Assembly (NCBI GenBank): GCA_016178055.1
Contig: JACOUC010000036.1
Location: 9 to 64,008, forward strand
Source of the DNA: Chlamydiota bacterium
GTDB lineage: Bacteria; Auribacterota; JACPWU01
Direction: 5' to 3'
Length of the DNA: 64,000 nt
The position numbers and the translations under genes are program-made. The notes under the pieces were generated by a model that was given only the letters and a program-made list of their open reading frames with translations, did no database searches and was not told where the DNA came from. Below are positions 3,931-63,754 of this stretch, in pieces (the first letter of the stretch is position 1; each line of letters begins with the position of its first letter).

Positions 3931-6900
3931 TCACATGCTTCGTTCCGTCATCTCCGTCGCTTCACGAAATTTTTCCATTTGATCATGCCAACGGCTTACA
4001 TTTGCGAAGGGCGTAACCTGATGCTCGTCCACATCCACAAGCAATCCTTCCAACTCATCAGGTTTAAAACCATGCTGAAGCAATGCTCGGGTAATCGCTT
4101 CGGCATCCCCATAACAAATGGCAGCCATCACGGACACCATCTCCTGACCGTACATGAATTTGTCAAAGAGCCCTTGAATGGGTTCATATAAGTTCCTATT
4201 TTCGCGATGCCCCAGCAGCCACTTTTCTGCCTCCTTCCCGCGAAAAAGTTCCCTCACTTTTGTATCGATTGCAGATCTCGCATCTTGTTCATTCAAATCT
4301 GTCAGGAAAAGAACTCTATCTTGAGGAATTTGATGTTCCCTGCAAAGGGTATCAAACTCTTCTCGAGATCTTTTTCGTTCCACAAAAACCATTTTACGAT
4401 TTCCTGTTTCGGATTCTTTAATAAATTCTGTCGGACTCAAACCTCCCAAACTTTGAACCGGTAAATCCATATCGGGGAATAGACAAACAGGTTTTTGATC
4501 TGCAGATGGTTTTAGAGCCGCTAAAAATTTTTTCTGAAAATGACGCAGCTTGGTTTTTAATCCAATCAGATAAGCGAGGGCCAAAGATAAATCTCTAGGC
4601 CGTGACATCTGAACGTGTGTGACACCCAGCGTCTGGGAATTCAGCTGAGCGGTCATTTCTCCTATTTCCATTTCGAATGACGCACCATTCATATCCTGTC
4701 TGATAGACCAAGTCACATCCCCACTAAAGTCGAGCGTAATCGAGCTTTGCTGAAATTCTCCTCTTTCTACCTTTCCTTCAAGCTCTTGCTCAATATTTTG
4801 AACTGTTTGACCCAACCCCTCCTCATCCAAAAGCCTCCTTGCCTCTAGCTCGAGAGAAAGTCTTTCAGTTTTTGCCTGATGAGCCTCTGCCTCTCTAATA
4901 AGATCCGGATGTTTGACTTGGATCATGAGTTCGACCAGTACAGCATCTAAAGTCTTAAGATCATTCTCTGAAAGCGATGTCTCTTTAGCAAATGAATGTG
5001 TCGCATCTCCCAAAGTCCAAAGAATGTCATAAACGGTATGGCTCTCCATCCATTCCCTTAAGGAAAGTCCCGCCGTTATGTTCTCCTGGGCCCAGGATTC
5101 AAAATTTTGAATTAAATTTTGTTTATGGAATTGAACAACGCCCTCTAAAATTCTAGACTTCAAAGGTTCATCTTCGGGCACCAAATGAAGATAAGCTGAA
5201 AAAATTTCTACTAAACCCTTTCGTTCATTGATGGCCCTAACAGCCGCCCGAACACTGGCCCAGGGGAAGGCGTCTCTTCCTTGATAATGACAAACCAAAA
5301 GGTCCGCTCGATACAACCATTTGTTTATCTCTGTAAAAAAGGCATTTGTCTCGTCAGGGTATAACGACCGAATCCCTGAAGTGTTATAGCCCGGGAAAGA
5401 CAAGCCCGTTATAAGAAATTCTACAGAGGAGTAAACTTCATACTCTGGTTGAAACGGGATGGCCTCTTGATAAAGGCAGTATTGATTCTCACCAACACGT
5501 TGAATCACCAAATAAAGATCTTCATTCTGATTTTCAAAATAAATTTCCCCCCTCGGTAAATTTAAAAAGCAAACGCCTTGATGGGAAAGACGCTTTAACA
5601 ATCTCTCCACCACCTCCTGTTGAGTCTGGGTCAATAAATAAAAAGGCTGAATGGCATTTCCAGATTCATCAACCCAATCGACCCCCTTCGCCAAAAACCT
5701 GCGTTCTACCCCTTCATCAGGTTTCTTTAAATGGTGTAAAGTCATGCTAAGCGAAATAAAATCAAAAGATTCTGCAGAACGATTCTGCATAAACGATTCA
5801 CTCATTACATCATTTTGAGGAATTCTGGCGTCAAGATATGTCACCCCTTCTACATCCGTTTGTCCTCTCTCCCTAAAATCCGCACTGTTAAAAGCACTCT
5901 CTCTGATCTCTCCACTCTCTAGCGAATAACTGGGGAAAAAGGCATCTGTTCCTTCATAGCTAAAATGGGTCCCGGGCAAAGCCTCTTCAAAAGTTTTTCT
6001 CAAAAGATTGAGCGTGGGAGCCCCATAAGCCTTCGGGGCAGATCCAATGTCCAGCCAACGATAATGGTCTTTATGAGGTATCGACAAATGAAGTGAAGGA
6101 AGGTGAGTGGGAATCCATTCCGCTTCAACACCAAAGGGATTTGCATAAAGATGATACATGTCCAGTAAATATCGAAACTGAGGATTGATTTGGATAAACC
6201 GGACAATCGGCTCTCTTGAAAAAATATCTCTTCCTTCAAACATATTCACCACTGCAAGTGCAAGAGGCATGAAACGATGTTCTCCACTGGCATGCCAGGT
6301 CATGAATTTTAGAAAACGCACTATATTTTCTAAGACCTCTTTTCGCCGAGTCTCTGGCAAAGCAGCAACGATTGATAAAATCTTTCCTGCCTCTCGATGT
6401 CGTTCATCGTCATTAGCAAAATCCAACCCGAAAATAGCTGCAATTCCTTCTAAAATATTTTTCTCTTCAATCGTTTGGTGATTAATCTCCGTATAAATTC
6501 GTTTAATCTCAGTTAAGATATTCGTCCGACGCATAACACCTAAAAACAACTTCAAATGTCTCTCCAAATTCGCCTCTCGGGAAAACCTCTTGCCAGCCAC
6601 TTGTCTCGCCCTTTGTCCCATCGTAACTCTTAAATTTGGATGACGGATTAATTCCTCAATTTTCCCTCTAAACGCTTCAACATTTCCAGACTCAACAATA
6701 CAGCCTGTTTCTCCATCCACAACTGTTTCAGGCAATCCTCCCGATCGAGAAACAATAACGGGTTTTCCCATACTTTGAGCCTCTAAAGACACGAGACCAA
6801 ATGTTTCCTCATTTTTTAATGGTTCATCTCGTCTGCTTGGCATGGCAACGATATCGGAAAGAAAATACCAATCTCTCATTTCTTCCGCACTCAAAGGGCC

Positions 6901-9900
6901 TAAAAGAACAATTAAAACACCCTCTTCACGCAAATGTTGAATTTTCTCATACAAAGACTCTCTGAACTGTCTATTGTAGTCGTCATCTCCGTCTCTCAGC
7001 ATATCCTCCGTGAAACCCGCAATGACAACAGCCGCATTCCTCTTTAAATCATTTGATAAGCCCAATATGGCATCGAGCACGACGTCATATCCTTTCCGTT
7101 CCACTGGACGGCCCGACATCAAAATAACTGTCTTACCGGACAAAGAATGATTTACTCTCAAGTCATCTGTTTTGGTAGTAGTCACATAACGAGGATCGTA
7201 AAAACTTAAATCAGCAACAGGATAAAGGCACTCCACTTCAACACCAAAGTCCTTCTGAAATCTTTTTTGAACAGACTCACTAACCGTCAGAGCTAAATCA
7301 GCTTTCTTAAGAATATTTACCGTATTCGGAGAGAAAAATCTTGAATCACCAACCAAATCTTCTGGGACTCGATCTAACAAACGCCAGGGCCCTGAGTGAA
7401 ATTCTTGGATCACAGGTATTTTATTTTGTTTTCCGAACGCATTAAAAGCATTCCCTGCATAGTGAAAAGAAGATTCACTCACAATGAGATCTACTTTACC
7501 CTCTTCTTGTAAAATTTTCCTTAACAAGCCATTGACTTCATCTGCAAGATCTTGCCCTGGCTCATTATTCTGACGAGTCATATGAATTTGAACAACGCCT
7601 TCCAATTCCGATGAAACGACGACTTTACCCCCATCCCGTTTCAATAATGGAGACACCCTTTGACCACCACCCAGAACAATCACATGGATTTTGAGTCCTT
7701 TAATCTCTTGAGCCAATAATAAAAGCAGATGATCCATATAGGTCGATACCCCATTCATCTCCAAATACCCAGGGGCATAAAAAACAAGCACTTTTCCCGA
7801 AAATGCCTCTTTGAGTTGAGATAAGTTCTCTGTTGTTGAAGCTTCCCCCTGTGTAACAGTAATCGAACCCTCTGGACTTGTTTGGGAACCTTGGTCATCG
7901 TTCGCATCATCCCCTAACACCCCCTTCTGATAAAGGGCCCCTGTGACCGTTACCCAATGATTAGAGACAATGTGGGCAATCAGGCCCATGGCCAAAACCG
8001 GCCAGAGGCGAAGTATATTTGAAAAAAGGTTTGATACAACACTCGTCGGTTGAATATCCGGAAGAAGACCAGCAAGGGCAATGTCAGGTTGAATTAACGA
8101 AGTTAATATCAGCAACCCCATGCCCACTACTAAAAAAATCGCTGCTCTTTGACTCTTTCCCTTGACTTGCCTAAGCATCTGTCCTACGATTCCTGCCATG
8201 GAAGAAAATAAATCTGAAAATGATTCCGTAATGAAATCAAGCCACGTGGCTGTCATTCTTGAAGACCTTCGAGGCCAATTTAAGGTTTTTGGAGAAGGGT
8301 TATCCGGACTTCGTGAAAAGACAGAGGAAGGCTTCGCAAGAATCGATAAAAAGTTCGACCGTATCGAAAATGAGCTTGCTAATTTTCGCGTTCGTGTGCG
8401 CGGAGTTGAAGACGGCAATGCACGTATAGAGACCAAAGTCGATAAGATCGAAACCCGACTAGAGAAGGTTGAGACCAAGGTTGATAAGATCGAAATCAGG
8501 CTAGGGAAGATCGAAACCCGACTAGAGAAGGGTGAAATCAAGGTAGAAAAGATTTCAGAAAGTAACGTCCGAATTGAGGCCGATCTTAGGATCATCAAAA
8601 ATCTTGTCAAAGTGAAGGTTGATTTGGAAGAATATAAAATTCTGGAAGATCGTGTTGCCCTTCTTGAATCAAAATTTGCTGCTCTAGCGAGATAACGCGC
8701 TCCATACAAATTCCACACCAAATAAAAAGTTATCCCAACCACCAAAATCATCTCCCACGATGAGAGCCCTGTACGGAAAAATCCAAGAAGTGAGACCAGA
8801 GAAATCAAGGTTGGAATGAAAATTCTTCTGAAGCTAGATGAAAAACCGCTCGAAGCTCGAGGCTCAAAGCTCGAGGTAAATACTTCTTCGGTTCTTTGCT
8901 TTTCCCTCGAGCTTCGAGCCTCCAGCTCATTTTTAGCTTCTAGCCGCCTTTCATGCCCCCACACAAACACCACTCTCAAGACGGCGTAGAGCACAGGACT
9001 TCCTAAAGATAAGGCCCAAATAAAAATTTCTTCGATAAAAGGAACAACAAAATCTTCTTTAAAATCTCGACTCAAAGACTTTCGTCCAAGAACATTTACC
9101 CAAAACCAGTCGAGAGGTCGAGTAACCTGAGACGCCAGCCAATAGGAAGGAAGAAGAACGCCTTTGCCAGAAGAGAAAGAACCTAAAGCAGGATCAACAT
9201 AGCGACTTATAAATGCTTTTAACTCTTGCACTTTAAACAGAGGTTTTTCAGAAAGTTTTCGGGCTTGAATCTCATTAATATAGTGATTGAGCCAAACTTT
9301 TGCTAATTCTAGTCCCTCCTTATTGCCATGTTTTTTCATCATCTCTAGCAAAAATCCTTGCATGACCCCTGTTCGAAGAATGGCATCATGCCCCTGGCCA
9401 AGACTTTCATGTCGATAGCCCTTCTCACCTTCCCTCAACGAGCCAAGCCAGTGTAAATTAAAATAGTAATCAAGAAAGTGAGATGGATCGATCCCTCTTT
9501 TAGTTCCCCGCCATGTGATGAGAGAGAATTTCATTTCCCGACCCGAAATAACAGAAGCTCTCCCTTGTGCCGCTGTCAAATCTCGAACATCCACTCCCAC
9601 ATCTCCTGCATTAATTCTAAAGCCATCAATCAGGGTTTGAGCCTCAGGATTATAGTAACGAACCAAAAACCGTCCCATGGCCGCAAGGGTATTGATCATA
9701 TCTCCAGGCTCAACAAAAGCGCCCCACTTTCCAGGCAAACTTGTATTAACGAGTAAATATCCAGGAGGGATTCGATTTGCCCAAGCATGATGAGGCGAAA
9801 TATACTGAATCTCATCCCGACCATTGATGAATCGACTCGTGTAGGCGCTCACTTTTCCTTCCTGAGTCTCGACCTCTCCATCACGCAAAACCTCGACCAA

Positions 9901-12900
9901 TTCTGCATCCCCGCGATGGCTTAAAAGGGCTTGATACTCACTCGATGTAACACGTGATTTTTCTTGTGCGTCTCTGGCCATGACCATCACCAAAGGAATC
10001 ACTTCCTTCGTTTGTTTTAAAGTTGTCAAAATAAAATAAATATTCTGATAAACCCCCTCTTGAAGGCGAATGACTTGAACAGGAAATTCAATATCATCTA
10101 AAGAAAGTTTACGCCCTCCCAATTCATCCTGAAGAGAATCGAGCAAAATATTTCCCTCTCCCGTTTCAAGATTCTTCATCAACAGAGCCTCAACCGCATT
10201 TCTTGATTGTGCCAATGTCAAATCATTGCGATCCCGAGGCACATCCCACTGATCTCCCTGCCGCCACTGACCCGCTCGATAGAGGTCATAATGGCAAATC
10301 CTACCCCCTTGAGCCATCGAGGCATTGTCCGGCATTTTCTCCATCGCTTGAGATAATCTTTGATAGATCTCAAGCGTCTGAGAGAAAGTGGAGGGCATTT
10401 TGGTTTTGAGTATATTCAGCTTTGATTGATAACGCTCAAGCAAAGTCCGATCCTGCAAAATCACAAAATTGACTGCTGTTAGAAATAAGAGTTGGTCTAC
10501 TTGACTCTGAATCGCCCCTTCAATAAGTTTTCCAAGTGTCCCGATCTCCTCGGAAAGCAAGGCCTGTCTCACTTCTTCTGTGATACGCTGATGCACATTT
10601 TCTCGTCGAACCACAAGAGGTTGAAGAGTAGAGGCTGCAGGCAAAGCAGTTTCACCAGACAAAATATGCGCCTCAATAAACCTCCTCAACGCCTTGCCCA
10701 GGGGATTTTTGCCTTCGCGATTGAAAATTTTATCTGTGAGCTGGATAATCTGAGGATGCGTAAGACGGGTTCTTTCCAAGGCCTCATGAAGGGTCGCTTC
10801 ATCCACCAGATCCGAAATGCCAGTGCTCTTTTCCTCCGCCTCAAGAAACTGCATCAGATTGACCGCCAAAGCGCTTTCAGAGCCCAAGAAATATTTTTCT
10901 CTGCTCAAGACCCGAGCCTCAAACCATTTGAAAGCCTCTCGAGGATTTTGAAGAGCCGCCAAGACCTTTACTATTTCATCGTTTTCAATTCCTTGCTGAA
11001 CCAATGTGCTCCAAATCTCACTTCCAAGGCGCCCAGCCAAAGCCCTCGAGCGTTCTTCCACAAGCGTTACAACAGGCTCATGGGAACTTCTCACCTTGTC
11101 ACTTTGCTCTTCAATTTCTCTTCGCCACTGGGCTTCTTCGTCAGGCGTAACCTCTGGGCCAATGATGTTGCCTGAAGATGGCTCTTCTTCACTTAAGGCG
11201 AGTGACGGAGATTGGGAAGTTTGAAGTTGCCACACAATTTTAGAAGATCCATCACCATTCGTCGTTAACACCTGACTCCCATCTTCAGAAAACTTAGCAG
11301 AGCGCACCCAATTTTTTCCTCCATAAAAAGTCTCAAGGAGCTCTCTTGTTTCAACATTCCATACTTGACCACTCCAATATCGAGTTCGCTCTAGGTAATA
11401 GTTATATTGATCACCCCCCCAGCTTGTTTCAGTTCTATCAAAACGCATTGTTAATACTGTACGTCCATCAGGGGAAACAAGAATATGAACAAGTTTTTTG
11501 CCCATGTATTCCCTATAACGCTTGATAATGCGTTCCTTTGCTTCTTCGGTTAATAGAGAATCAGGAGATCGAGGAGTCGTGGTACCTAAAGGAGCGTCTG
11601 ACGCTGTCGAAGTTACACTTCCTTTTTTCCCCCTCTTTCGAGAAGGACTTGACGGAGGTGTGACTGTTGCTCCAGCAGAGTCAGCTGTTATCGTTGTCGT
11701 GGTCGAATCAGCCCCTGAGCCCGTTTCATCTCGCACAGGTTCAGGGACTATGACTACTTTTGGAGCTTCCGTACATTCCATCCTCAACCAATATGTCACT
11801 TCATTCTCCCCTTCTGTAAAGCCCAACTGACACCCTGGAATAGATGCCATTTGTGCCTTGAGTTCGAGTAGTTTATTCCTGACATTGGATTCTCCTGATT
11901 CTCTGAGACGAAGGGCCTCCTGTCTTGCAGCTTCAATGTCTGGATATTCACCGGTGAGATGTGTTTTTAAGAATTTCTCTTCGTTGGCAGACATTCTTCC
12001 TTCTCTGACAATCTGAATATTAAAGTGGCCTTCTTTTAATTCACTTCCCAGTTCAATGAATCGGCCTGGGTTGTGGGTTTTGGCGATGCGGACAAATTCA
12101 TTGAGCCAGTCTTTTGCGATGGGTCTTTGTTCTTCTGGTAGAGGGAGAGCTTGTGTGAATGGGGTGATGGCTGCATCTTTTAGTTGGGGGTCGTTGTGGT
12201 TTGAACGCTGCCTTTGTTGAGGGGGTGCAGGTAAAGGGGTTCTGGCCCAGAAGCAGCCATATTGTCCATTCATCTGATCGGTTTTGGGAGCGGTTCTTTC
12301 AGAGTCGATGAGATTTGAAAGCACGGCTGGCTCCACCCCATCATTCTGAGAATCCACTGTTTGGCCGACGAGTCCCATGATCTTCTGAAAGATGGGAGCG
12401 ACAGCTTGAGAAGCTGATAATCGATTGTCTGAAGGGGGCGCAGGGTCGAAGGTGAATTGAAAGCCTCTTTCTGGGTTGATGTCTATGTGGAAGGTTCCGC
12501 CATTGAGAATGTGGCCTTGAGCCATTTCTTCGAGGATTCTGTTGCTTAAGGGGTCTCTGATCTCCTGTTCGATGAGTCGTCGTAAGGGCCGTGCCCCATT
12601 GATGATGTCATAGCCTCTTTGAGCGAGGGTTTCATAGACGTTATCCGCGACTTCGACTTTGAATTTGTTTTCTGTGAAGTCACTGAGTTCCCGTTTTAAG
12701 AGGATGCGAGCAATTTGTCTTATGTTTTCAGGGGTGATGACGTTGCAGGCGATGATGTGGTCGATGCGGTTGATGATTTCAGGTTTGTATTTGGCTCTGA
12801 TGCTGGTTTCTACGGTTTGGGCAATGAGGTCGTTCATTTGGGTAATAATAGCTTGTGTTGCCTCTTCTGTTTCTGCGGTTTTAAGTTCTTCAGCCAGGGT

Positions 12901-20215: not shown

Positions 20216-20286
20216 ACAGAGCCTTTATGAACTAAAAGTAACTGTTTTTATATACCTTTAGTTCACATTGTTTTCCAATCTCCCTT

Positions 20287-24209: not shown

Positions 24210-24213
24210 AGCC

Positions 24214-24246: not shown

Positions 24247-24255
24247 AAAAACAAA

Positions 24256-26113: not shown

Positions 26114-26118
26114 CAAGA

Positions 26119-26178
26119 AGATCTATAAACGCGGATCTAACGCAGATCTATAAACGCAGATCAAATGCGGATCTATTT
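26119..26178. repeat. Left tandem-repeat array (about 11 bp AACGCGGATCT units) flanking the GxxExxY gene
   Basis: gatctataaacgcggatctaacgcagatctataaacgcagatcaaatgcggatctat. The inverted copy of the array lies at 26590-26648. Confidence 0.6.
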
Positions 26179-35215: not shown

Positions 35216-35498
35216 AAATCACATCTTTTTGAATACGACGGCGAATAAATTCTTTTAAGGAAGACTCAAGTCCAAGATCGACCTTTTTTTTGAAAGAAGA
35301 TTCAAGAAAATGGTTCAAATTAAAAAAACTCCTGAATTTATTTGGACTTACAATATCGACAAGAATATCAATATCACTCTCCTCACGAGCCTCATTTCGT
35401 GCGTAGCTCCCAAACAAACCGATGCTGACGACCCCAAAGTTTGTCTTAAGCTCTGCTTTATGTCTTTGAAGAAAATGGAGAATTTCGTCACGTGTCAT
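35208..35498 (-). CDS. MntA-like minimal nucleotidyltransferase antitoxin
   Basis: 96 aa with GLFGSYARNEAREESDIDILVD (the GS...D.D nucleotidyltransferase motif). Confidence 0.65.
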   Translation of the reverse strand: MTRDEILHFLQRHKAELKTNFGVVSIGLFGSYARNEAREESDIDILVDIVSPNKFRSFFNLNHFLESSFKKKVDLGLESSLKEFIRRRIQKDVIYA

Positions 35499-35549: not shown

Positions 35550-35576
35550 ATGCGGGAATCTGTTACGCGGCGGCGG
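35550..35576. repeat. Right copy of the 24 bp direct repeat flanking the HepT/MntA cassette (overlaps the ORF2 stop)
   Basis: See 34714-34740. Confidence 0.5.
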
Positions 35577-53500: not shown

Positions 53501-56500
53501 GAACTTCCAACCCGTAATTCTTGATCACCAACCTGAATGACGCTCTCACCAGAAACCACAATGAATTGACCCTTTGCTGAATCATATGTAATAGTAATAG
53601 GCGCCTCTGAATAACCTGCGAGTTTGACCTGTAAAATTTTTCCAGATAAGAGATCAGGTGAAATGCGGTAGAATTCTCCTTTCTTCCAAACTCCTTCTTC
53701 CAGCGATATAGATTGTGAAAATCTGATTAAGGCTTCTTCCTTCCATTGATCTATTTTTTGGGCCAGCTCACCAAGGACATCCGCATATTTAACAGGCAAA
53801 CCTTGCTGGACATATTCTTTAATCTTTGATTTATATTCACGAGCACTTTTGAGATTGTCTAAATAAGCCCAATCGCCTCGTTGAGTTGCACTGAAAATTT
53901 CATAACGAATTCTTTCTCCTTGAGAAGCTCTATATTCTGCAACCACCCCAACTCGATGCGCATGAAGTTGAACTTTAGAATCCTTAGATTGTTTGGCCAA
54001 ATTTTCTTTTGTCTCATGGAGAGCGACACCTCTGATCATTTTCATGATATCAAAATCAAGGGCTCTCGCTTCTTTCAAAGACTCTAGGCTCATCACCGTA
54101 TAAAGTTTTCCATCCACTTCAAAACTGAGGGTCGAACTCTTGCCGCGCGAGCCTTCAAAGAAAACAGAAGTCGAATCTGTCCCCGAACGCAAAGCCCCCG
54201 GTAAATCTTTTAGAGAGGTAATAAAAATATTATTCTCTTTAAGCCAATCAGATTCATCTTTTTTCAAACCTAGTCCAGGGGAACTTCCATTCACCAAACC
54301 AATCTGTAAACGTTGAAGAACCATTACAAAATCTATCGAACTCAATGAAGTTAAATCCCCTAATGCCAATTCCTGATGCTCGCCCACCGGCTGAGCGGTG
54401 GAAAGAGGAATTATTTCCGCTACCGGAGGGCCACTGGCTTCGAGAGCAGCTATATTAACTTCTACCTCAGACAGCTGTAACCCCATAACCTGACTGGTTT
54501 TTCCATCGATTAAAAAAGTAGCGAGATTAATTATTAAATTTTTTCCGGGCAAACCTTCAAGAGGAATCGCACATAAAAGCTCGCTTCCTTGTAAAATGAA
54601 TTTTAAATTTTGAAGATCTAGAGAGAAATCTCGAAGAATAGCCCCTGGCGACGACCGATCTTGTTCGAGCGCAGTCGAGAACCCGCTCTTTCCCATAGCC
54701 TGAAGCCTTGCCCCAACAAAATCACCAAAAGATTGTGGACTGACAGCCGCATCAGTTGCTTTAAATTCAGCATAAAGACTTTTTAAAATGGTCGAAATCA
54801 ACTGAAGTTCATAGGCAATAATCGGAGCTCGGTCTTCGGGAAGGCCTTCAGCATTGGTCATGAGCCAATGCATGAGACTCTTCTGGCTCGAGGCTCGAGG
54901 CTGGAGGCTAGAGGAGGAAATAGGAAGAGATTCATTTTCTGCTTCTTCGGTTTGTTTTTTTTCTTTTGTTTCTGCCTCGAGCTTCGAGCCTCGAGCTTCG
55001 AGCCTAAGATTTTCCCCCACCCATTTCTCAAAAGGGGTCAGCTCCCCCATCATTACAGATTCATAGCGGTCCGCAGAAGATGCATTAAAATGAGGGATGA
55101 AGACAACATACGAGTAGCCCGCCTGTTTCAAGGCTTCCTTTAGAGCTGGAGTATGGAACCCCCCGGTCATCACGGCCCCGAAAGACTCATCAGACTCTTT
55201 CAAGCGATTTAACGCCCGAAGCGTCATTTCATGATCCCGTTCAAGCGTTGCTTCATAATAAGGTTCGATCTGGCTAAGCCGATCGGCCAAGGGATAATGG
55301 ATATCTTCAGCATGCTCTTCTACAGTGTAAGCCCCCGATTCATGCTGAATGAATTTTAAAATTTTTGGAATGAGCTTATCTTTTTTAGAAACGTATTCCT
55401 GATATTCAGATTTCTCAATGGAGAGATCTGTAAGGCGATCCAGAAGATTAATAAAGGATGAATAGAGGCATAAAGATTTTTCTTCCTCGGTCACACATTC
55501 AGCAAATAAGGTTTCAAAGGCAAGTTTTTGGATTTGTTCAAAGAGGAGGGCATCACTGACTTTTTGCACCGCTTCGAGATAGTTCATGTAGTTTTGGATA
55601 TTTGGATAAGAATTTGAAATGCTCGAGGCTCGAGGCTCGAGGATCGAAGCAGGCATAGAAAGCTCCATAAACCTCTTCACTGTCTGATAAAATTCTAAGG
55701 GGGCAATCTCATTCAAACGATACGATAAAGTCTGCTCTAAAAATTTGGCCATTTCCTCATCACTGGCCTTTCCGTTGACGGCGATGAGAAGCTTTCCCAT
55801 TTCATTGTGAATTTTCTTTAGATCAATATTTTTCTTGAAGGGAAGCGTTGCAAGATAAGGCTTAATCTCTGAAAAATTTTCAAGATTGATTTTTGCCTTT
55901 TCGCTCTCCCTCATGAGACTTCCCATAAAATGCTCTAAATCTATTTTGTAGGTAAGATAGTCATTCAATTCCCTTACAAAACTCTGAACTTCACCTGTAT
56001 AGACATAATCCGAAAACTGAGCCATTAAAATTTTTAATTTAGCAATATGCTCTTTCAATTCTTTGCGAAGAGAGACCGTATCCCGGTAGGCATGATAATT
56101 TTTTAAGTAGAGATGGATATCCTCAATCCCATAAAGTTGAAGAGGCTTTTCTCCATTGATCGCTTCAAACTCAGCACCCGTGAGCTGACCCAAATTGAGA
56201 TATTCCTCGGACACCTCTTTTAATATTTTTTTATCGGGGAAAGATCGAAAGCGTTGGGTCGAGAGCTCACCCGAGGCGGCTTCGATGTTGATCCTTTTAA
56301 GATTATATTTTTGAGCGAGATATTCTAAGAGGTCCACCGTATTTTTCTGAGCTTGAGGATGGGCATGAATATCCTGAAAGAGGAAAACGGTATGGCTTGA
56401 GTTCGGCGCTTGATACGTCTCGATCACCCGTCCCAGCTCTGTCGGAATAAAAATAGAGGAAGAATTTTCAAGAGAAGAAATGGACGCCGCTTCTTTAGCC

Positions 56501-56601: not shown

Positions 56602-56701
56602 AATCCTTCTCTTGAGAAAAGCATAACTTTTCTCTCCGTTTGATAAAGTAAACTTCTCGACTCTCTCTCGATAAACTCAAGATCACTCGAAGAATAAAAG
56701 A

Positions 56702-59700
56702 CTACGCCTTTACCGCAGCCAAGTCATACATCTGACGCGTTGCTTTATATTTTTCCTCGTCTAATTCTTCTTTCTTAAGATGCACGCTATAGGTCTTCAC
56801 TCCTTGTCCCACCTCTTTTGCCTTAAACCGTTTTGCAAGCTCTGCATTCATTGCGCTCAATTTATCAAACATCGTTTGATCAAGCTGGATATCAATCGCA
56901 TCGCCCAGTATGAGTTGATTCAAAATTTTCGAGTAAATAGATTGATGGCTGGGGTCGATCACAACCTGAATATTTTGAACTTGTAATCCCATTAAACCCT
57001 TCGCCTCAGCCGCTTTTATAATATAATTTTCCATATTTTCAGGGCTTGCCTCTTCTCGAGTGGGTGCCTGCTCAAAAATAATTCCTTCATTTCTAAATCT
57101 CAACAAAACTTCGGCTCCAGGAATTTTCTTATCAACCAATGCCTGAAGGCCACCGATCTTACCTTCATGGTCAACCAATACTATTTTCATTTGGCCTTGA
57201 CTCTGACGCATCTGGGCCGCTGCTTTTACTAAAACTGCAATTGAAGCCTCAGCCCCAGGACGAGCGATATTATTACCATCCACAAGAGTCGAAAGATCGA
57301 TCAGCAAAAGCGCCGGAGCTCTATCCAGTGCCTCTGGTCTGTCCATAAAAAGTCCACGAACAACTCCCTCAAGCGCTTCAGCCTTAGACGCTTCAAAACG
57401 ATTCGCAGATGTTTTCCGGATTGACTTCTGAAGCAATGCAAATTGTTTAACCGAGGTCTCAAATTTTTCAATTTGGAATATGACATTATCCGGAGACTTT
57501 CCTAAGGCTGTTAATATCAAGGGTAAATATTGCTTAATAAATTCTCTCTGCTCAGCACGATCATCTCCAATCACAGCTTGAAGGGCATCTAGATCCATTT
57601 CTCGAATTTCATTCCAGAGAAATTCTACTTGAGTAATATCAGTCCAACCATTTTCAATGATTTGAAGGGCCCAGGCCAATATATGACTGACACGAGCAAG
57701 ATCTGGTAACTCCCCCAACCCCTCTTGAACCAAGAGGGGAGTCCCTCCTACTGAAGTCTCTCCCCTTTCTTTTAAGGGGGAGCTGGAGAGGTTACTCTCC
57801 ATCCAATTTTTAATAAATATTTCCATCTTTTCATGCTGAAGAGCAATTTTTTTATCTTGGGCATTCCTAGAAATAAATATATAGAGCTTGCCATCATTCC
57901 CATAGCAGTGATAGGCCCCGCCGACCGTCTTTAAAATATCTTTTAAACCTGGAAACAATTTTTCCAGATGAGGATCATTTTCATCATAGTTCACTTCCTG
58001 ATACGTTGTAACCCCTCTAACTCCCCTTAAACTAAGGGGAGAGCCCGTCTCCCTTCCCGATTCAAGAGTAGCCATCTCCCCTCTTGGTTCAAGAGGGGTT
58101 GGGCGAGTTACGTTCTTTAACTTACTTAAATAAGGGTCGCCATCATCAATTGTCACCGTCCGACTCTTACTAATTTTTTTTAGATTTACTGCAAATTCAA
58201 TCATCTTTAATTCCTTATCACGACTCAAACTCACTTGATGATGCACCAATTTCTTACGAGCTCCGCCGCTTCCTGGCGTACCAGAGCCCGGAGGTGTTTT
58301 GGAGCCTGAAATTCGGGCGAGCCATCGGACGAAGGGAGATTGCGCAAACGCTTCAACCTTAAGCCAAGAAATTCCTGCCAATGTTGTATAAATTAGACTT
58401 TTTCGAAAGGTTAATTCCTCTAATGCCCTTTCCCTGAACCTTGATTCATAAGCGTTTAACTCGTCCATATTAATCTGCATAGTTCGCATAGGTTCTGGCA
58501 TGCGCCTATTTAAAGTTTCTATGACCCGATGCTGAAGAGATGCCCGCATTTCAGACGTTTCTGCTTCAACTCTTTCGAGAAATGCAGTGTCTTTCTCCCT
58601 CATTTTTCTTTCATGAAGTAGTGTCAACCCTTGTTTTCCATATTTGATGACCTCTAAAGCCGCCGCCCCTATGTGAGCTGCAAGGACAGCGATGCTATAT
58701 TCACGAGTTTCTCCACTATATCTTGCTCTACGCTGGACAAGTCTCTCTTCTAAAATAGGCTCTAGTTCATCTATCAAATCTGGATTGCTTATAATCCACT
58801 GCATCAAGTGCCATTCTGAAATTTCATGAACACCCACTTCGTCACGTTCTTCCATTTTAAGGTTTCGACTCATCCAAATTTCAACACGATTCCTTTCAGC
58901 AACTTTAATCACCGCATCATTTCCTTGAAGTTTATCAGCAGGCACCAAATAACAGCTTAGTTCGGCATCTTCACCCAAAAAGTTTTTAATCTGTTTATAA
59001 GGAAAAGATGGAATTAAAAATGACTCGTACTTATTTGACTCTGCCGGCTCATGAAGTGAGGGAAGACCCATCTCACCCTGAGAAGAACGGCTTTGATCGG
59101 CCCTTTGACCCGTAGAAGTAGTTGTAGAAACTGCATGAGCAAGCGTACCAAAAGCACCCGCCACCTCTGGAGCCAAAACATCATCAACGATTTCGATGTC
59201 AGGTGAAATTTCCTCTGGTAAAACAATGTCTAATTGATCTAGGGCCTCTGAAGTCGACATTCTCTGTGTAACGTCCTTCGCGAGAAGTCCTCTGAAAAAA
59301 GTTTGAAGATCGGAATTCAATTTTGAAAAAGCTGCTTCATATTGTCCATCAAAGGGATCGACATTTGTCACCTTTTCACGCCCTTTTACTGCACGACCTT
59401 GCCCCGTGGGCACTTCTCTATCCATGACTCGAAAGGGACTTGTGTTTAAAAGGGACATATATAAAATAACCCCCAGTGCAAAAAGATCACTTTTAAAACT
59501 GAAATTGCCATCATAAGTTTCTGGAGACATATAGGTAAGAGAGCCAATAATGAATCCGGATCGAACCTTTATTTCAGGAGAACCCGCAGCCCCAAAATCG
59601 ATCAGGGTCATTTTGTTTGTTTTAGGATTATAAAAGAAGTTTGCAGGCTTAAGGTCTCGATGGACTAAATTTAGGCCATGAACTTCTTCCAAGGTTTTCA

Positions 59701-62700
59701 GCAGCTCTTTAAAAGCCGTCAAAATATTATTCTGAAATGTTTCATATGTTAACTCTCCACTCACCAGTTGAGTTCGAAGGTTATGAACATATTGATCCCA
59801 TCTGATTGTCCCTTCTTCTTGAGTTACATCATCCATTGCAATGAATGAATCCCCATTTTCTAGAACACCAAACTCACGAACCGCAGGGTCTGGATTGTTT
59901 GGAAGGTCATGTACTTGTTTCTGAATTTGAGCTTCTCTTTCAGGGGTTGGGAGATAATGATAATCATCCTCTGGGCGAGGCGAAATAATTTTTAAAGCTA
60001 CGTGCTCGTTAGCATTTGTATCCAGAGCTCTAAAAACAGAACCTTGACCTCCTTCACCTAACTTCTCCAAAATCTGATAGTGACCCATGACTGTTCCAAT
60101 CTCATAAACATGTCTAGGTGTAGAAGGTGAAGCAGAGGGCGACAATCCACTCTCCCCTTCAGGAGCAGGTTCTTCTAGCAAGGCTTCGACTGGGACTTCA
60201 GGTCTAGCTAAAAAAGAGGAAGCCTCTGCCTCAGCCAAAATAACCGGTGTTATTCTCTCTAACTCATTCAAAGCCTGAGCGGCATTTTTGAATCTTTGAC
60301 TCACATGCTGATCTAGAATTTGTCTTATATAAGACATCAAGGGAGGAGAAATAGAAGCAATATCTTGTCCCTGAAACGCATCATTACCCAATTTCTTCGT
60401 TGCAATCACAACTTCTACATCTCCTGGAGCAATGCCAAAGGGAAAAGAAGCAGCGATCATATTAAAAAAGATTACGCCAGCAGAATACAAATCTGATTGA
60501 ACCGTTCGTCTTGTCTCAGGAGCTGCGTATAAGAAAGAAAGCTGCTGAAGGGCTTGTTCTTCTTCCGTCTCACTTGTTGAAGAACCAAAATCAAGGAAGG
60601 TGATTTGATGCTTAGAGGCATTGTAGCGTATATTTTCAGGTTTAAGGTCATTGTGTAATATCCCCCGAGCATGAAGTTCACCCAAAGCAGTCAGTAAAGC
60701 TTTAAAAAACGTTAGCATCTCTTGCATGTATACATCTCTTGAAAGAGTTCCTTCATCCATCCCATCTTGTAAGCGTACAATATAATCCTGAAGATCTTCA
60801 TCTTGATTAAAGTCCATCACAAGAAAATGACGTTGGCTCCCCTGATCATAACCATATCCATAAACTGAGGGGGCAGGTCCTCCATCGCGGGATGCAGATA
60901 ACTGACGTTGATATTCTTGCTCAATTTTTCTTTCGGCATCCTCAGCTCCCTCTTTCATCCACTTAATAGCACGTACATTGCCATCAACATCCTTAGCCTC
61001 CCAGGTTTCTGCAGTCGTTCCTTCACCTAATTTATTTACTAAGCGATAGCGACCATCAATAATCGTTGCCCCCTGACGATTCCATTGACTTAACACTTCA
61101 AAAGCTTGGACTTCAGCATTCAAAGCTTCTAAGGCATCATTGATATTCCAATAAAGCTCATCCAGTTGTTTTCTATCTTCCGCCGAAAGTTGAGCCAAAG
61201 CATCTCTTGCACTAACAAAATCATTCACTAAATTTGCTTCGCTCAGATTTAACGACGTCACCTCATCAGGTGAGGCAGAAGATAAATCTTCCCTCCATCC
61301 CTCAACTTGATTCATTGCCTCAGCAATACGATTCCGTAGAGAAAGCATTTGAGACCGAAGCGTCTCTTCTCCTTCAGACCCAGCCAATTCAGGAGACGGA
61401 GCTTCTTCTCCTCCACCAGCCAATTGAAATTCATCTAAAGAAGCGCTGTTAAAATCAATTCTCAAAACGGGCAGAAGATGATCATAAGTATGCTGATCTG
61501 GCGAAGACAAAACCTGCTTCAAAATTGCCTTTCGTTGCTGGTGAATTCCTGTTTCTAATACAGGATCATTTAATTGGTTTAAAATAGATCTCAAGTCCTG
61601 ATCACTTTCAAGAAGTCCTAAAAATTCGACATATCGCTCATCGATTCTTTTCAAGGAGGCCCCGCTCCCTTTCGGAAGTTTCCGAGCTCGATCAAGGAGA
61701 CAATCCATCCAAAAGGCTGAAACAGCATGAGGAGTAAGCGTCTCCACAAAAGTATTCCCTAAAACGCCACGAGCAAGAACCTGTAAGGGTGCTTTAAAAG
61801 GTTTCATTCCCTTTTCACTGTAAGGTCTAAATCGAAAAATGAGGGGCTCCCCTTTTATTAATCCAAATACAAGCCGGGCCCCTTCTTCATCCAAAGCACT
61901 ATATAAAATTTTAATCCCTTCACGATCTCTATCTTTTAACCACTGCGCTAATTCAGGATTTTTCTCTCTCCGCTTACGCGCATAAGCAAGCGTTGCTGCC
62001 GTCAGAGCAAATTCAGCCTTAAAATCATCTCCCACTTGCGTTTTTCTTCTGGGATCCGTGCTGATAAATCCAATGCCATCCTCTAGAGCAAGCATTTCTC
62101 CAATCCCCTTTAGATCTTCAGCCGTCAACGCATATTCTGGATCGCCCATTCTCTTCAGATAAAGCTGATAAGCCTCTTCAATAGAGTCCCTCGGAATCAC
62201 AGGAGAAATCACATGATAGGAAATATTTTTTTGTTGAAAGAATTTTTCCAAACCAGGGGTATGATAACCCCCAACCATCAGAACAGCACTCTTAACATTT
62301 TTTTCAGAAAACGAAGCCATGAAATTTTTGGCGATTTCTCCATCGCGAGATTTAATAGTTTTGTAATATTGCTCATACAATGGAAAATATTTTTTCAATG
62401 GAGCACTATCTTCGCCCATAAACTGCTGAATTTTATCCCAGCCCAAACGCTCAATCGTTTCCTCAACAAGCGTTAAGTCATCTTCACGACCTCTTAATTC
62501 CGCCATTCTTTTAAGGGCATAGAGCCATTCAAAAATAATTGCGGATTTATCAGAAATAAAACTCAGTTTAAGATTCTCTTCAATCTCACGAATTTCTTCC
62601 ATCAATTGATTGTCATTAATTTCAGTTCTAAACTGATAGGCCTGAATCGAACGGTCAATATTAGGGTAATCTTTTAGATTAATTTCTGAGCGCTTAGAGA

Positions 62701-63754
62701 AATCAATCAGAGCCAGATAATATTCATTAATTGAAAGCTCATTCATTCGATATTGAAGCGTCAGTTCAAGTAATTGAATGAGATCCTTTCGGGATAATTC
62801 ATCACCTAAAACATCCAGAAGCTTTCTCTCCTCATCTCCCAAGAGACTTGGATGAATTTCTTTTTCCATTTCAAAGTAATGAAGAACGTTTACATAATTT
62901 CGGATTTTGGATTTTGGATTTTGGATTTTTAAGGAGATCTGTAAATCGCTTAAAGCCTGGCAATAATCAAAAAGGCTTAATTCGTGACGAACATATTGAT
63001 CATGAAATTTAATCAATGAAATAAGTTGAGAGTTTTTTGCCTCGAGCCTCGAGCCTCGAGCCTCGAGCTGCTTTATTAATTCCTCTAAAACGGGCAGGAC
63101 TTCATCCTTCACCTTTAAAACATCTAAAAAGAGTTTCTTATTTTTTAAATAGTAAAGAGGCGTTTCAATTCCATAGAGAAGTGGATTGGACTCACTTGTA
63201 ATGGCATAAAACTCAGGCCCATTGAGCTTGGCATTTTTCATCAAAAATTCTGCAGTATCTCGGCGGATTTCTGGATCTGGAAGATTCTTAAAATAAGAAT
63301 AATCAAGGGCGCCACTGGCGCCTTCAAGGGCGATGAGAAAGCTGGAGCTTCGAGCTTCGAGGCTACTTTGGCTCGAGGCTCGAAGCTCGAGGCTCGAGGT
63401 AAATACTTTCTCAGTTTTTGCTTTTGTTTCTGCTTCGAGCTGATTTTCAATAATTTCCAAGATCCTGGCCATTCGCCATTGGACTTCAAAGTTCCCGTGG
63501 GCGTCTTGAAGGAGATAAATGGTTTTTGCATCTTTATCGGGAGAAATCCAGCTTCGCTCAATCCATCCTAATTTTTGAGGAATATAAAAATCTATATTTT
63601 TACCGAGAGAAGAAACGGAAGCAGGATTAAAGGGCAGCGTTTGCGCAAAAAGACTCTGGGAAGAGAAAATCATATCTTTCTCTATCAAAGAGAATGCGAA
63701 GGCAACCGTCACCCCAATACGGATCAATTTTATAAATAATGTTTCTCTTTTCAT
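56702..63754 (-). CDS. Giant multidomain protein, ORF3 (2350 aa: Tiki/ChaN-like N-domain, two Ser/Thr kinases, C-terminal module shared with ORF2)
   Basis: ATG at 63754 with AGGAG 4 nt upstream. Signal peptide MKRETLFIKLIRIGVTVAFAFSL. Its stop is about 100 bp upstream of the ORF2 start on the same strand. Confidence 0.7.
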   Translation of the reverse strand: MKRETLFIKLIRIGVTVAFAFSLIEKDMIFSSQSLFAQTLPFNPASVSSLGKNIDFYIPQKLGWIERSWISPDKDAKTIYLLQDAHGNFEVQWRMARILEIIENQLEAETKAKTEKVFTSSLELRASSQSSLEARSSSFLIALEGASGALDYSYFKNLPDPEIRRDTAEFLMKNAKLNGPEFYAITSESNPLLYGIETPLYYLKNKKLFLDVLKVKDEVLPVLEELIKQLEARGSRLEAKNSQLISLIKFHDQYVRHELSLFDYCQALSDLQISLKIQNPKSKIRNYVNVLHYFEMEKEIHPSLLGDEERKLLDVLGDELSRKDLIQLLELTLQYRMNELSINEYYLALIDFSKRSEINLKDYPNIDRSIQAYQFRTEINDNQLMEEIREIEENLKLSFISDKSAIIFEWLYALKRMAELRGREDDLTLVEETIERLGWDKIQQFMGEDSAPLKKYFPLYEQYYKTIKSRDGEIAKNFMASFSEKNVKSAVLMVGGYHTPGLEKFFQQKNISYHVISPVIPRDSIEEAYQLYLKRMGDPEYALTAEDLKGIGEMLALEDGIGFISTDPRRKTQVGDDFKAEFALTAATLAYARKRREKNPELAQWLKDRDREGIKILYSALDEEGARLVFGLIKGEPLIFRFRPYSEKGMKPFKAPLQVLARGVLGNTFVETLTPHAVSAFWMDCLLDRARKLPKGSGASLKRIDERYVEFLGLLESDQDLRSILNQLNDPVLETGIHQQRKAILKQVLSSPDQHTYDHLLPVLRIDFNSASLDEFQLAGGGEEAPSPELAGSEGEETLRSQMLSLRNRIAEAMNQVEGWREDLSSASPDEVTSLNLSEANLVNDFVSARDALAQLSAEDRKQLDELYWNINDALEALNAEVQAFEVLSQWNRQGATIIDGRYRLVNKLGEGTTAETWEAKDVDGNVRAIKWMKEGAEDAERKIEQEYQRQLSASRDGGPAPSVYGYGYDQGSQRHFLVMDFNQDEDLQDYIVRLQDGMDEGTLSRDVYMQEMLTFFKALLTALGELHARGILHNDLKPENIRYNASKHQITFLDFGSSTSETEEEQALQQLSFLYAAPETRRTVQSDLYSAGVIFFNMIAASFPFGIAPGDVEVVIATKKLGNDAFQGQDIASISPPLMSYIRQILDQHVSQRFKNAAQALNELERITPVILAEAEASSFLARPEVPVEALLEEPAPEGESGLSPSASPSTPRHVYEIGTVMGHYQILEKLGEGGQGSVFRALDTNANEHVALKIISPRPEDDYHYLPTPEREAQIQKQVHDLPNNPDPAVREFGVLENGDSFIAMDDVTQEEGTIRWDQYVHNLRTQLVSGELTYETFQNNILTAFKELLKTLEEVHGLNLVHRDLKPANFFYNPKTNKMTLIDFGAAGSPEIKVRSGFIIGSLTYMSPETYDGNFSFKSDLFALGVILYMSLLNTSPFRVMDREVPTGQGRAVKGREKVTNVDPFDGQYEAAFSKLNSDLQTFFRGLLAKDVTQRMSTSEALDQLDIVLPEEISPDIEIVDDVLAPEVAGAFGTLAHAVSTTTSTGQRADQSRSSQGEMGLPSLHEPAESNKYESFLIPSFPYKQIKNFLGEDAELSCYLVPADKLQGNDAVIKVAERNRVEIWMSRNLKMEERDEVGVHEISEWHLMQWIISNPDLIDELEPILEERLVQRRARYSGETREYSIAVLAAHIGAAALEVIKYGKQGLTLLHERKMREKDTAFLERVEAETSEMRASLQHRVIETLNRRMPEPMRTMQINMDELNAYESRFRERALEELTFRKSLIYTTLAGISWLKVEAFAQSPFVRWLARISGSKTPPGSGTPGSGGARKKLVHHQVSLSRDKELKMIEFAVNLKKISKSRTVTIDDGDPYLSKLKNVTRPTPLEPRGEMATLESGRETGSPLSLRGVRGVTTYQEVNYDENDPHLEKLFPGLKDILKTVGGAYHCYGNDGKLYIFISRNAQDKKIALQHEKMEIFIKNWMESNLSSSPLKERGETSVGGTPLLVQEGLGELPDLARVSHILAWALQIIENGWTDITQVEFLWNEIREMDLDALQAVIGDDRAEQREFIKQYLPLILTALGKSPDNVIFQIEKFETSVKQFALLQKSIRKTSANRFEASKAEALEGVVRGLFMDRPEALDRAPALLLIDLSTLVDGNNIARPGAEASIAVLVKAAAQMRQSQGQMKIVLVDHEGKIGGLQALVDKKIPGAEVLLRFRNEGIIFEQAPTREEASPENMENYIIKAAEAKGLMGLQVQNIQVVIDPSHQSIYSKILNQLILGDAIDIQLDQTMFDKLSAMNAELAKRFKAKEVGQGVKTYSVHLKKEELDEEKYKATRQMYDLAAVKA
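57713..57782. repeat. Family B palindromic element (CCCCTCTTGAACCAAGAGGGG and CTCCCCTTTCTTTTAAGGGGGAG hairpins), in frame in ORF3
   Basis: It is an inverted partner of 58021-58103, about 240 bp away. Confidence 0.6.
58021..58103. repeat. Family B palindromic element, inverted partner (CTCCCCTTAAACTAAGGGGAG ... CCCCTCTTGGTTCAAGAGGGG), in frame in ORF3
   Basis: The reverse complement matches 57713-57782 over about 80 bp with gaps. Confidence 0.6.
59380..60095 (-). other. ORF3 Ser/Thr kinase domain 2
   Basis: HYQILEKLGEGGQGSVFRALD at 60020-60088, VALKII, VHRDLKPANFFY at 59643-59665, IDFGAAG and LTYMSPE. Confidence 0.7.
60330..61070 (-). other. ORF3 Ser/Thr kinase domain 1
   Basis: RYRLVNKLGEGTTAETWEAKD at 61021-61070, RAIKW, HNDLKPENIRY at 60612-60660, LDFGSS and LYAAPE. 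Confidence 0.65.
63039..63068. repeat. Family A element, single arm, in frame in ORF3
   Basis: gcctcgagcctcgagcctcgagcctcgagc. It encodes LEARGSRLEAK. Confidence 0.6.
63343..63440. repeat. Family A palindromic element, full, in frame in ORF3
   Basis: gagcttcgagcttcgaggc...ggctcgaggctcgaagctcgaggctcgagg taaatactttctcagtttttgcttttgtttctgcttcgagc. Confidence 0.75.

Follow-up and report, generated by a model that had tools for sequence, protein, structure and literature searches.

We describe here the giant open reading frames (ORFs) of a 64,000-nucleotide (nt) stretch of DNA, referred to below as the window, on contig JACOUC010000036.1 (66.7 kb) of a groundwater metagenome-assembled genome (MAG) that is labelled 'Chlamydiae bacterium' and belongs to the Planctomycetes-Verrucomicrobia-Chlamydiae (PVC) superphylum (window proteins MBI1870647-668). 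The organism also occurs in the sequencing runs SRR12113417 and SRR12113387. Three such ORFs lie on the minus strand, ORF1 (3931..19998), ORF2 (35563..56601) and ORF3 (56702..63754), with 5355 codons counted from a GTG start, 7012 codons and 2350 codons, respectively. The long frame of ORF1 passes without a stop through the reverse complement of three small gene cassettes encoded on the plus strand, and the codon choice in these cassettes avoids all triplets that would give a stop in the ORF1 frame. On balance we think it probable, if not strongly so, that ORF1, ORF2 and ORF3 are intact genes for long multi-enzyme proteins that begin with a common domain, here called the head, and that the continuity of ORF1 across selfish opposite-strand cassettes is kept by selection, which would imply read-through translation. 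From the sequence we infer, short of proof, that ORF1 is translated as one chain. The giant ORFs are not due to chance, because in control genes (13.6 k codons) the stop-free antisense runs never exceeded 140 codons. The start of ORF1 is likely the ATG at 19887 (MLVRFMRS..., 5318 amino acids (aa)), as it is called in the separately deposited sibling assembly GCA_016196915.1 (contig JACPWT010000011.1), which served as the comparison genome. A first-pass annotation of this DNA had reported three tandem paralogous giant ORFs; the sizes, the coordinates and the paralogy of the heads hold, but only ORF2 and ORF3 are in tandem (100 nt apart), ORF1 lying 15.5 kb away beyond ordinary genes (glycogen debranching enzyme, TldD/PmbA, MqnA, a pseudopilin-like gene and transketolase).

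We trained a codon-usage score on the genes nearby and compared it across strands and frames. The ORF1 frame came out as non-coding at about 8130-8900, 14430-15330 and 16680-17130, and at all three places a plus-strand frame scored best. The first-pass annotation had missed these three plus-strand coding stretches. No strand flip of the score was found in ORF2 or ORF3. Four blocks of ORF1 are thereby joined in frame through three bridges, each of which is the reverse complement of a plus-strand cassette. The cassettes and blocks, where TM stands for transmembrane, are as follows.

16709..17110, plus strand: cc1 cassette, with predicted promoter TTGACT-17-TATGAT at 16709-16737 and a coiled-coil gene from the ATG at 16745 (16745..17110, 121 aa)
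14648..15325, plus strand: vapBC-like cassette, with an AAGGAGG Shine-Dalgarno sequence, a 62-aa putative antitoxin (14665..14853) and a PIN-domain toxin (14858..15325)
8162..8695, plus strand: cc2 cassette, with predicted promoter TTGACT-17-TACGAT at 8162-8190 and a coiled-coil gene from the ATG at 8198 (8198..8695, 165 aa) that contains 21-nt heptad repeats
17113..19887, minus strand: ORF1 block 1, signal sequence and head (EDIH at aa 125, GGFHT at aa 757), broken by 4-5 in-frame hairpin elements
15328..16746, minus strand: ORF1 block 2, M50 protease (5 TM helices) and about 250 aa of unassigned sequence, with a terminal TM helix at aa 1530-1555
8698..14622, minus strand: ORF1 block 3, TM anchor (aa 1800-1825), Hsp100-type double AAA+ module, WD40-like patch and about 1100 aa of unassigned sequence
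3934..8199, minus strand: ORF1 block 4, TM anchor, GT4 glycosyltransferase, weak methyltransferase-like region (5551-6075) and unassigned C-terminus

The coiled-coil genes of cc1 and cc2 are paralogous, the predicted promoter TTGACT-17-TAyGAT is kept in both with a leaderless-type start, and their products belong to a conserved small family that is present in other organisms. A third paralog, 84% identical to cc1, lies on another contig of the MAG (MBI1870399.1 / HYS07_04310) and is annotated at 70 aa, shortened at both ends relative to the family. The PIN gene matched PIN_3 (2e-11) and PIN (1.4e-10) and its product has the acidic residues D10, D12, E57, D107/D110 and D129. Its cassette resembles VapBC modules in having a small upstream ORF with a strong Shine-Dalgarno sequence, a PIN gene that starts 4 nt further on and acidic residues as expected; it differs from them in that the putative antitoxin lacks a family match and in that the operon is antisense inside another ORF whose frame is spared by its codon usage. 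In the deposited gene calls only the long ORF is given at the cassettes, the PIN and coiled-coil genes being unannotated, and none of the plus-strand genes within ORF1 turned up in the protein collection, which was queried directly for the PIN protein. Standard gene callers miss genes that are embedded antisense, and protein databases under-represent them. In the ORF1 frame the bridges translate as low-complexity sequence rich in Ser, Leu, Thr and Arg, for example SRFSSTLNSSKSTLTLIWF, SNSVLSGTLTEIIWNIR and STLVSTFSSRVSILSTLVS.

In the stop-avoidance test the synonymous codons were resampled while the cassette protein sequences were kept fixed. Antisense stops in control genes amounted to 4.3-5.5% of codons, and Tyr, His and Gln make up 1.8-4.8% of the cassette proteins as against 9.5%, which lowers the number of antisense stops expected. 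The probability of finding no stop in the ORF1 frame was 0.39 for cc2, 0.049 for cc1, 0.025 for the PIN gene and 0.009 for the vapB-like ORF. The joint probability, given the cassette proteins, is about 4e-6, that of the vapBC-like cassette alone is about 2e-4, and the chance of 1/27 that all three junctions are in frame comes on top of the 4e-6. A stand-alone coiled-coil homolog has 2 stops in the same antisense phase. Because the joint probability is so low, the long frame looks selected.

Antisense embedding is recurrent but not obligatory. When a metagenome was scanned with the coiled-coil alignment, 64 loci were obtained and these were mostly stand-alone copies; high-GC loci were left out since they have long ORFs in all frames and are uninformative. 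At one locus, which is from another metagenome (L058, GC 0.45), a coiled-coil homolog that has a promoter to itself, TTGACG-17-TATCCT, lies antisense inside a 3787-codon ORF (862-12225, minus strand) that encodes DnaJ upstream of the cassette and a methyltransferase, HATPase_c and a 2-hydroxyacid dehydrogenase (2-Hacid_dh) downstream of it. The codon score of this ORF flips strand only in the interval over the cassette, and the relative phase of the cassette differs from that in ORF1. At a second locus (L056) the coiled-coil gene is enclosed by an antisense ORF (1-2226, minus strand; at least 742 codons) that runs off the contig, and at a third (L027) it is the lone plus-strand gene in a run of separate minus-strand genes. 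No antisense-coding segments were found in a 9.4-kb piece of a gene for 11,572 aa (L001); embedding is not universal.

It may be asked whether ORF1 is a single gene at all. It could be four neighbouring minus-strand genes (head protein, M50, Hsp100 and GT4) with their own starts, interleaved with three opposite-strand cassettes, whose open frame is due to cassette composition and chance or to insertions that replaced stops or intergenic DNA, the full chain being functionless. We consider this rather unlikely, but a number of observations weigh for it and against a continuity that is kept by selection. A Met followed by a TM helix comes after every bridge (M1085, M1793 and M3934), and with its basic stretch every block opens like a normal N-terminus; hence the blocks could be made separately. 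However, M1085 and M3934 lie within DNA common to the cc1 and cc2 cassettes, in the palindromes CCATGG and TCATGA that hold both start codons and, therefore, they are cassette-derived and are not evidence of ancestral gene starts. Most genes in the window are without a Shine-Dalgarno sequence, so that a Shine-Dalgarno analysis of internal starts is uninformative. The bridges score as non-coding in the ORF1 frame, heads (about 500-1000 aa) and M50 proteins (about 220 aa) also occur by themselves, and the L027 arrangement, a coiled-coil gene among separate genes, counts for this reading; on the other hand, three consecutive upstream genes would have to be without a stop with every junction in frame, the embedding recurs in L058, and any translation begun at the head continues to 3931 whatever the origin of the ORF. 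Some open antisense frame was found at 18 of the 46 low-GC coiled-coil homolog loci and, coiled-coil genes being poor in Tyr, His and Gln, the openness of cc1 and cc2 is not very improbable; the value of about 2e-4 for the vapBC-like cassette alone speaks against chance. The 62-aa vapB-like ORF has no match in Pfam or NCBIfam, and the joint probability would be higher were it not a gene. The vapBC-like cassette is flanked by diverged duplicate TM helices (aa 1530-1555 and 1800-1825, 46% identity), which suggests that it was inserted into a pre-existing ORF; apart from this duplication, nothing convincing was found at the DNA level as regards target-site duplications or terminal inverted repeats around the cassettes. 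Also, no homologs of the ORF1 body were found, so that conservation of the fusion has no relative for comparison. The earlier claim that M50, ClpB and GT4 form one polypeptide is less firm than it seems, because the enzymes lie in separate coding blocks that are joined only through the antisense of other genes.

A more far-reaching proposal is that antisense cassettes with codon usage tuned to a stop-free host frame are truly bidirectionally coding DNA, with gene welding and a maturase as extensions; we hold this as a tentative possibility that is more doubtful than not. Stop-free antisense cassettes may be bridges that weld neighbouring genes into longer ORFs, as one way in which giant genes grow, and the head, a putative Tiki/RRSP-like endopeptidase with which about 10,000 long-protein clusters begin, could, speculatively, be a maturase that cuts the chains. 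In the 3787-aa ORF of L058 the motif G[SA]R[LM][AGS] occurs in 18 copies as compared to about 0.2 expected, with synonymous codon variation that indicates a motif at the peptide level, and two of its copies bracket the antisense cassette; the ORF at L056 has a recurrent (S/T/G)RAELR motif. These recurrent peptides might serve for processing or for docking. We considered a general motif for polyprotein cleavage and rejected it, since 12 head-bearing long proteins had no common recurrent short motif and only L058 and L056 have one.

An artefact of assembly or sequencing, in which chimeric joins at repeats or collapsed errors produced the long frames, is scarcely credible. The source is a short-read MAG, there are short repeats inside the giant ORFs (the hairpin elements and the two coiled-coil copies), and independent Logan contigs end before they reach the giant ORFs. 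The repeats, however, share only 65-88% identity and do not coincide with the cassette junctions, and the catalytic motifs are intact across the giant ORFs. Positions 1-12666 of the window, where cc2 and its junctions lie, match GCA_016196915.1 at 100% identity, positions 46702-64000 (17.3 kb) differ from it by 15 substitutions and no indels, and the ORF lengths are called alike in it (5318, 7012 and 2350 aa). Because two assemblies agree in sequence and ORF lengths, an assembly artefact is unlikely. As for the strain differences, 14 of the 15 are within ORF3 (57853-62908; about 30 kb compared), where they changed 11 codons nonsynonymously and 1 synonymously with none in the kinase domains, an excess that is not significant alone (p of about 0.16); there were none in the 9.9 kb of ORF2 compared with the sibling assembly. 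ORF3 also contains a 36-nt inverted repeat, 97% complementary (57706-57741 and 58076-58111, spacing 334 nt), near the strain differences at 58162-58183.

The heads of the three ORFs are paralogous, with E-values of 2e-29 for ORF2 and ORF3, 8e-18 for ORF1 and ORF3, and 7e-14 for ORF1 and ORF2. The first-pass annotation placed a signal peptide and a two-motif Tiki/TraB/ChaN-like domain at the start of all three, and both motifs are indeed present: (E/Q)D(I/A)H at aa 125, 76 and 83 and GG(F/Y)HT at aa 757, 480 and 495 in ORF1, ORF2 and ORF3, respectively. In the alignment of the head family, in which the motifs read QD(A/I)H...E.Q and GG(F/Y)HT, E107, R455 and H483 are invariant. The head is about 500 aa and looks like a Tiki/TraB/ChaN/EreA-type alpha/beta core with conserved His, Glu and Arg that is split by a helical insert of about 300 aa. 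The superfamily was reportedly defined by Sanchez-Pulido & Ponting (2013) through two His motifs of the GxxH type, along with conserved Glu and Arg. Compared to the Tiki/TraB/PrgY/ChaN/erythromycin-esterase superfamily, the head has QDxH and not GxxH as motif 1, its core is split by the insert, it has no match at the sequence level and it is constantly N-terminal in long proteins. The heads of ORF1-3 had no Pfam match at E<=0.01, either to the superfamily models (TraB, Cofac_haem_bdg, Erythro_esteras and TIKI) or to others, the head profile gave only spurious EF-hand matches among PDB sequences, and a Foldseek search of PDB was dominated by helical bundles with nothing significant; the structural neighbours of the head include the effector and toxin domains HopBA1, PMT and RRSP.

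A word-indexed search with the head returned 18 homologs, mostly stand-alone proteins of about 510 aa, and one kinase fusion. An exhaustive profile search gave 9,895 cluster representatives at E<=1e-3 and 6,763 at E<=1e-30. Among the best 150 matches of this search 109 were longer than 1000 aa, 77 longer than 2000 aa and 40 longer than 3000 aa, and the head was N-terminal in all 150. Twelve long head-bearing relatives that were examined had Sec-type signal peptides and their cargo comprised PGM/PMM, ROK, starch synthase, PGI, transaldolase, GT1/GT2, HEAT, CsrA, PP2C and radical SAM domains. ORF1-3 are probably intact members of this very large and as yet unnamed family, whose long multi-enzyme proteins differ in their string of cargo by lineage; beyond the head, the bodies of ORF1-3 had no BLAST relatives among about 125 long proteins. 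Since the head starts thousands of long proteins with unrelated cargo, a class described in Omnitrophota, the earlier statements that the locus has no obvious precedent and that it is a dedicated envelope-spanning machine do not stand. At one locus (L003) a head-kinase fusion lies beside genes for PP2C, FHA-sigma54, Clp-like AAA+, STK-WD40 and ClpP, a neighbourhood that echoes the kinase, PP2C and FHA theme of the window and points to a functional association. On Omnitrophota-like contigs (among L001, L002, L005 and L084) a stand-alone head gene comes after a gene for PilZ and one giant gene (11,572 or 13,055 aa) and ahead of fused glycolytic enzymes, for example TIM-FBPase-PGK-GAPDH (2763 aa) and PPDK-enolase (2879 aa). 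That stand-alone head proteins constantly adjoin giant genes was considered and dropped, as it is true for L001 and L005 and false for L083 and L084.

Searches with Pfam and NCBIfam hidden Markov models (HMMs) supported the M50, AAA+, GT4, kinase and PP2C assignments of the first-pass annotation. The M50 module of ORF1 has HEYAH at aa 1135, NLLPLPSLDG at aa 1255 and 5 predicted TM helices, and its Peptidase_M50 score is marginal (27.8 bits with a gathering cutoff of 27.2). By tblastn the block was 37-44% identical to stand-alone M50 proteins, and in the genome contigs of the GTDB representatives, to which the source MAG does not belong, only distant stand-alone M50 proteins (about 220 aa) were found. 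The double AAA+ module spans aa 1876-2493 (12520-14373), matches AAA, AAA_lid_9, AAA_2 and ClpB_D2-small (5e-16), and has the Walker motifs GPRGVGKT (1905), FIDEI (1969), GPTGVGKT (2241) and LFDEI (2309) as well as the D2 pore loop GYVG at aa 2288. No [KR]Y[RK]G pore-loop motif was found in the D1 ring, so that aromatic pore loops are not seen in both rings, and no Clp_N match was found in the Pfam search. The ClpB model TIGR03346 scored 542 bits, with a cutoff of 1232, in two stretches, whereas the ClpA model matched in one. Because of this low, two-piece match and the absence of Clp_N and of the D1 pore-loop tyrosine, the module is, as judged by its sequence, of the Hsp100 class and not a ClpB equivalog; of the complete ClpB-like disaggregase reported earlier beside M50 and GT4, the AAA+ assignment holds and the ClpB identity does not. 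Like the class-1 unfoldases ClpB/Hsp100 the module has two AAA+ domains with Walker A and B motifs, AAA_lid_9, ClpB_D2-small, D2 GYVG and a GAR sensor, but unlike them it has an N-terminal TM anchor in place of Clp_N, no KYRG-type D1 tyrosine, and is embedded in a 16-kb ORF. The stretch 12001-14000, which codes for this module, has a GC content of 0.488 as compared to about 0.42 elsewhere and a GC skew of +0.21, while other minus-strand genes are negative; this atypical composition hints at a separate origin of the Hsp100 module. The GT4 domain (aa 4082-4477, 6568-7755) matched Glyco_transf_4 (1.3e-7) and Glycos_transf_1 (1.7e-29) and has the E-x7-E motif ETFGLVSLE at aa 4398. A homolog search with aa 2560-3760 of ORF1 returned only WD40-like patches.

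ORF2 and ORF3 carry kinases and phosphatases in place of the ORF1 enzymes, and their features, together with a phosphatase gene next to ORF1, are as follows.

35563..56601, minus strand: ORF2, 7012 aa, coding-like throughout by codon score
55012-56601, minus strand: ORF2 head, followed by module X (4 copies) and module Y (2 copies, HEAxH)
45853-46209, minus strand: ORF2 TM cluster (aa 3465-3583)
44098-45039, minus strand: ORF2 kinase 1
42352-43689, minus strand: ORF2 PP2C 1
39463-40176, minus strand: ORF2 kinase 2
36967-38250, minus strand: ORF2 PP2C 2
35566-36222, minus strand: ORF2 C-terminal module
56702..63754, minus strand: ORF3, 2350 aa, head at 62120-63754
60245-61054, minus strand: ORF3 kinase 1
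59216-60085, minus strand: ORF3 kinase 2
57329-58843, minus strand: ORF3 region common to ORF2
56705-57355, minus strand: ORF3 C-terminal module
20287..21978, minus strand: FHA-GAF-SpoIIE (PP2C-type) phosphatase gene, 289 nt upstream of ORF1

Two Hanks-type kinase domains were found in each ORF (Pkinase 3e-49 in ORF2 and 3e-58 in ORF3), with the motifs HxDxKxxN, DFG and (A/S)PE at aa 4008/4029/4051 and 5611/5632/5658 of ORF2 and at aa 1034/1055/1078 and 1365/1386/1410 of ORF3. The PP2C domains of ORF2 scored 30.9 bits with PP2C_2 (cutoff 24) and 21.3 bits with PP2C (cutoff 20.3); both copies have large inserts and the motifs DGxGG, GD(S/T), DG and DD at aa 4339/4564/4679/4742 and 6150/6354/6471/6525. 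HMM scores and catalytic motifs thus bear out the Ser/Thr kinases in ORF2 and ORF3 and the two PP2C domains in ORF2 that had been proposed, and the C-terminal module proposed to be shared is similar in the two ORFs (4e-13). The placement of the PP2C domains on the far side of the TM cluster from the kinases was mistaken, as both kinases and both PP2Cs are C-terminal to aa 3465-3583, and the FHA-GAF-PP2C gene that had been placed immediately downstream of ORF1 is transcriptionally upstream of it. Modules X, Y and Z, the C-terminal module and the unassigned regions of ORF1 had no Pfam match even at E<=1.

A probable arrangement of these parts can be proposed. If selection keeps ribosomes reading through, ORF1 would most likely be one membrane-threaded chain in which the antisense-derived bridges, every one with a TM helix behind it, are spacers that the chain tolerates, the cassettes being selfish passengers. 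The exported head would be in the periplasm, the unfoldase tethered beside M50 would be an extract-and-cleave device in the style of FtsH, and the kinases, the PP2Cs and the upstream FHA-GAF-SpoIIE protein might form a phospho-Ser/Thr circuit. The topology does not fit throughout: in ORF3, which starts with a signal sequence, the exported head and the kinases are not separated by a TM helix, module X of ORF2 is on both sides of the TM cluster, and one head-kinase fusion (P0035) has neither a TM helix nor a signal peptide. The missing TM helix of ORF3 would be expected if ORF2 and ORF3 at least were secreted multi-effector proteins directed against a host or prey, like MARTX or the large clostridial toxins, and not a signalling machine of the producing cell itself, with kinases and phosphatases that act in the target cell and a hydrophobic cluster that serves translocation. 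This is quite improbable in our estimate. It would agree with the eukaryote-like character of the kinases, with HopBA1, PMT and RRSP among the structural neighbours of the head, with the Chlamydiae label of the MAG and with the reading of published Omnitrophota giants as host- or prey-directed. But domain searches found no secretion-system signal or autoprocessing protease domain, the cargo of the family relatives is housekeeping sugar metabolism, and the FHA/PP2C/kinase neighbourhood of L003 resembles ordinary bacterial signalling. ORF3 as a hot spot of strain differences (14 of 15, with 11 nonsynonymous codons to 1 synonymous) would also suit an effector, although this excess, as said above, does not reach significance. 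We keep to the reading of ORF1-3 as head-bearing multi-enzyme proteins.

The giant ORFs also contain hairpin elements built of the heptamer GCTCGAG (no strand assigned), and small genes lie at their ends.

8848-8926, 17972-18049, 18549-18577, 18799-18916 and 19491-19558: GCTCGAG-heptamer hairpin elements in ORF1
36487-36515, 54886-55003, 55621-55649, 63040-63068 and 63371-63399: GCTCGAG-heptamer hairpin elements in ORF2 and ORF3
34769..35498, minus strand: MntA (NTP_transf_2)/HepT toxin-antitoxin pair directly after the ORF2 stop
34503-34679: HicB-like gene near the ORF2 end

There were 28 matches to the hairpin elements as compared to 0 expected, and all those of the window lie within the giant ORFs, for the most part in the head domain, where they are insertions relative to the head-family alignment. 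They read in frame as LEARGS(K/R)LEAK or SSLEPRASS and, 7 and 3 being coprime, none of the six frames has a stop in the arms. In RNA folding, 4 of the 5 elements folded gave -46 to -56 kcal/mol with z of -6 to -8.8. Rickettsia palindromic elements and in-frame miniature inverted-repeat transposable elements (PMC10969869) are, like these, palindromic repeats that lie in frame in protein-coding genes and are translated; the elements of the window differ from the former in that their arms are built of a 7-nt unit, in their confinement to giant ORFs and mostly to the head, and in being from another lineage. Small selfish-looking cassettes cluster at the ends of the giant genes, and after the ORF1 stop (2700-3900) there are a DUF4160/DUF2442 pair and a MazE-like pair. 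Elsewhere in the window a PDDEXK_3 gene (26110-26655) sits between tldD and pmbA and overlaps them by 4 nt.

Giant genes in bacteria were discovered recently and are still poorly understood. Here, complete conserved genes lie opposite a giant ORF whose frame is nevertheless open, with codon-level evidence for selection, and such embedding is found in at least two unrelated giant ORFs. If confirmed, this bears on how giant genes tolerate or recruit mobile cassettes, on gene callers that silently discard embedded genes, and on whether long ORFs are translated as one chain. It is also a caution that not every domain combination in a giant ORF is a designed fusion protein. The common head, in turn, gives a handle with which giant multi-enzyme proteins can be found, classified and tested, for example as to whether the head processes or anchors the chain.

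Very long multi-enzyme proteins have already been described in Omnitrophota (West-Roberts et al. 2023, 10.1101/2023.11.21.568195; Nielsen & Lui 2026, 10.64898/2026.06.07.730766; 'Archaeovorins'). Like the ORFs of the window, these giants concatenate unrelated enzymes (GT1/GT4, methyltransferase, AAA, peptidases and sugar metabolism), have a signal peptide and scattered TM helices and come from a groundwater PVC lineage, and head-sharing relatives of the window ORFs carry the published domain set. The window ORFs differ in their cargo of Hanks kinases, PP2C, M50 and Hsp100, in the Chlamydiae label of their MAG, and in length, being 2350-7012 aa as compared to the at least 10 to 147 thousand aa that are emphasised for Omnitrophota. 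In the main text of both preprints a conserved head domain and opposite-strand genes inside ORFs appear unmentioned, and the widespread head domain among long multi-enzyme proteins appears to be new. Embedded antisense overlapping genes have been put forward as candidates in E. coli (10.1101/2020.11.18.388249), and there, as in ORF1, a whole gene lies inside and opposite a longer ORF with both frames open. Unlike in E. coli, the embedded genes described here (PIN and coiled-coil) are conserved and have their own predicted promoters, and it is a giant ORF that hosts them, with a frame that looks non-coding where they lie. Giant multi-enzyme ORFs are thus known, and what is new is, above all, that conserved genes lie antisense in giant ORFs and spare the host frame at the codon level.

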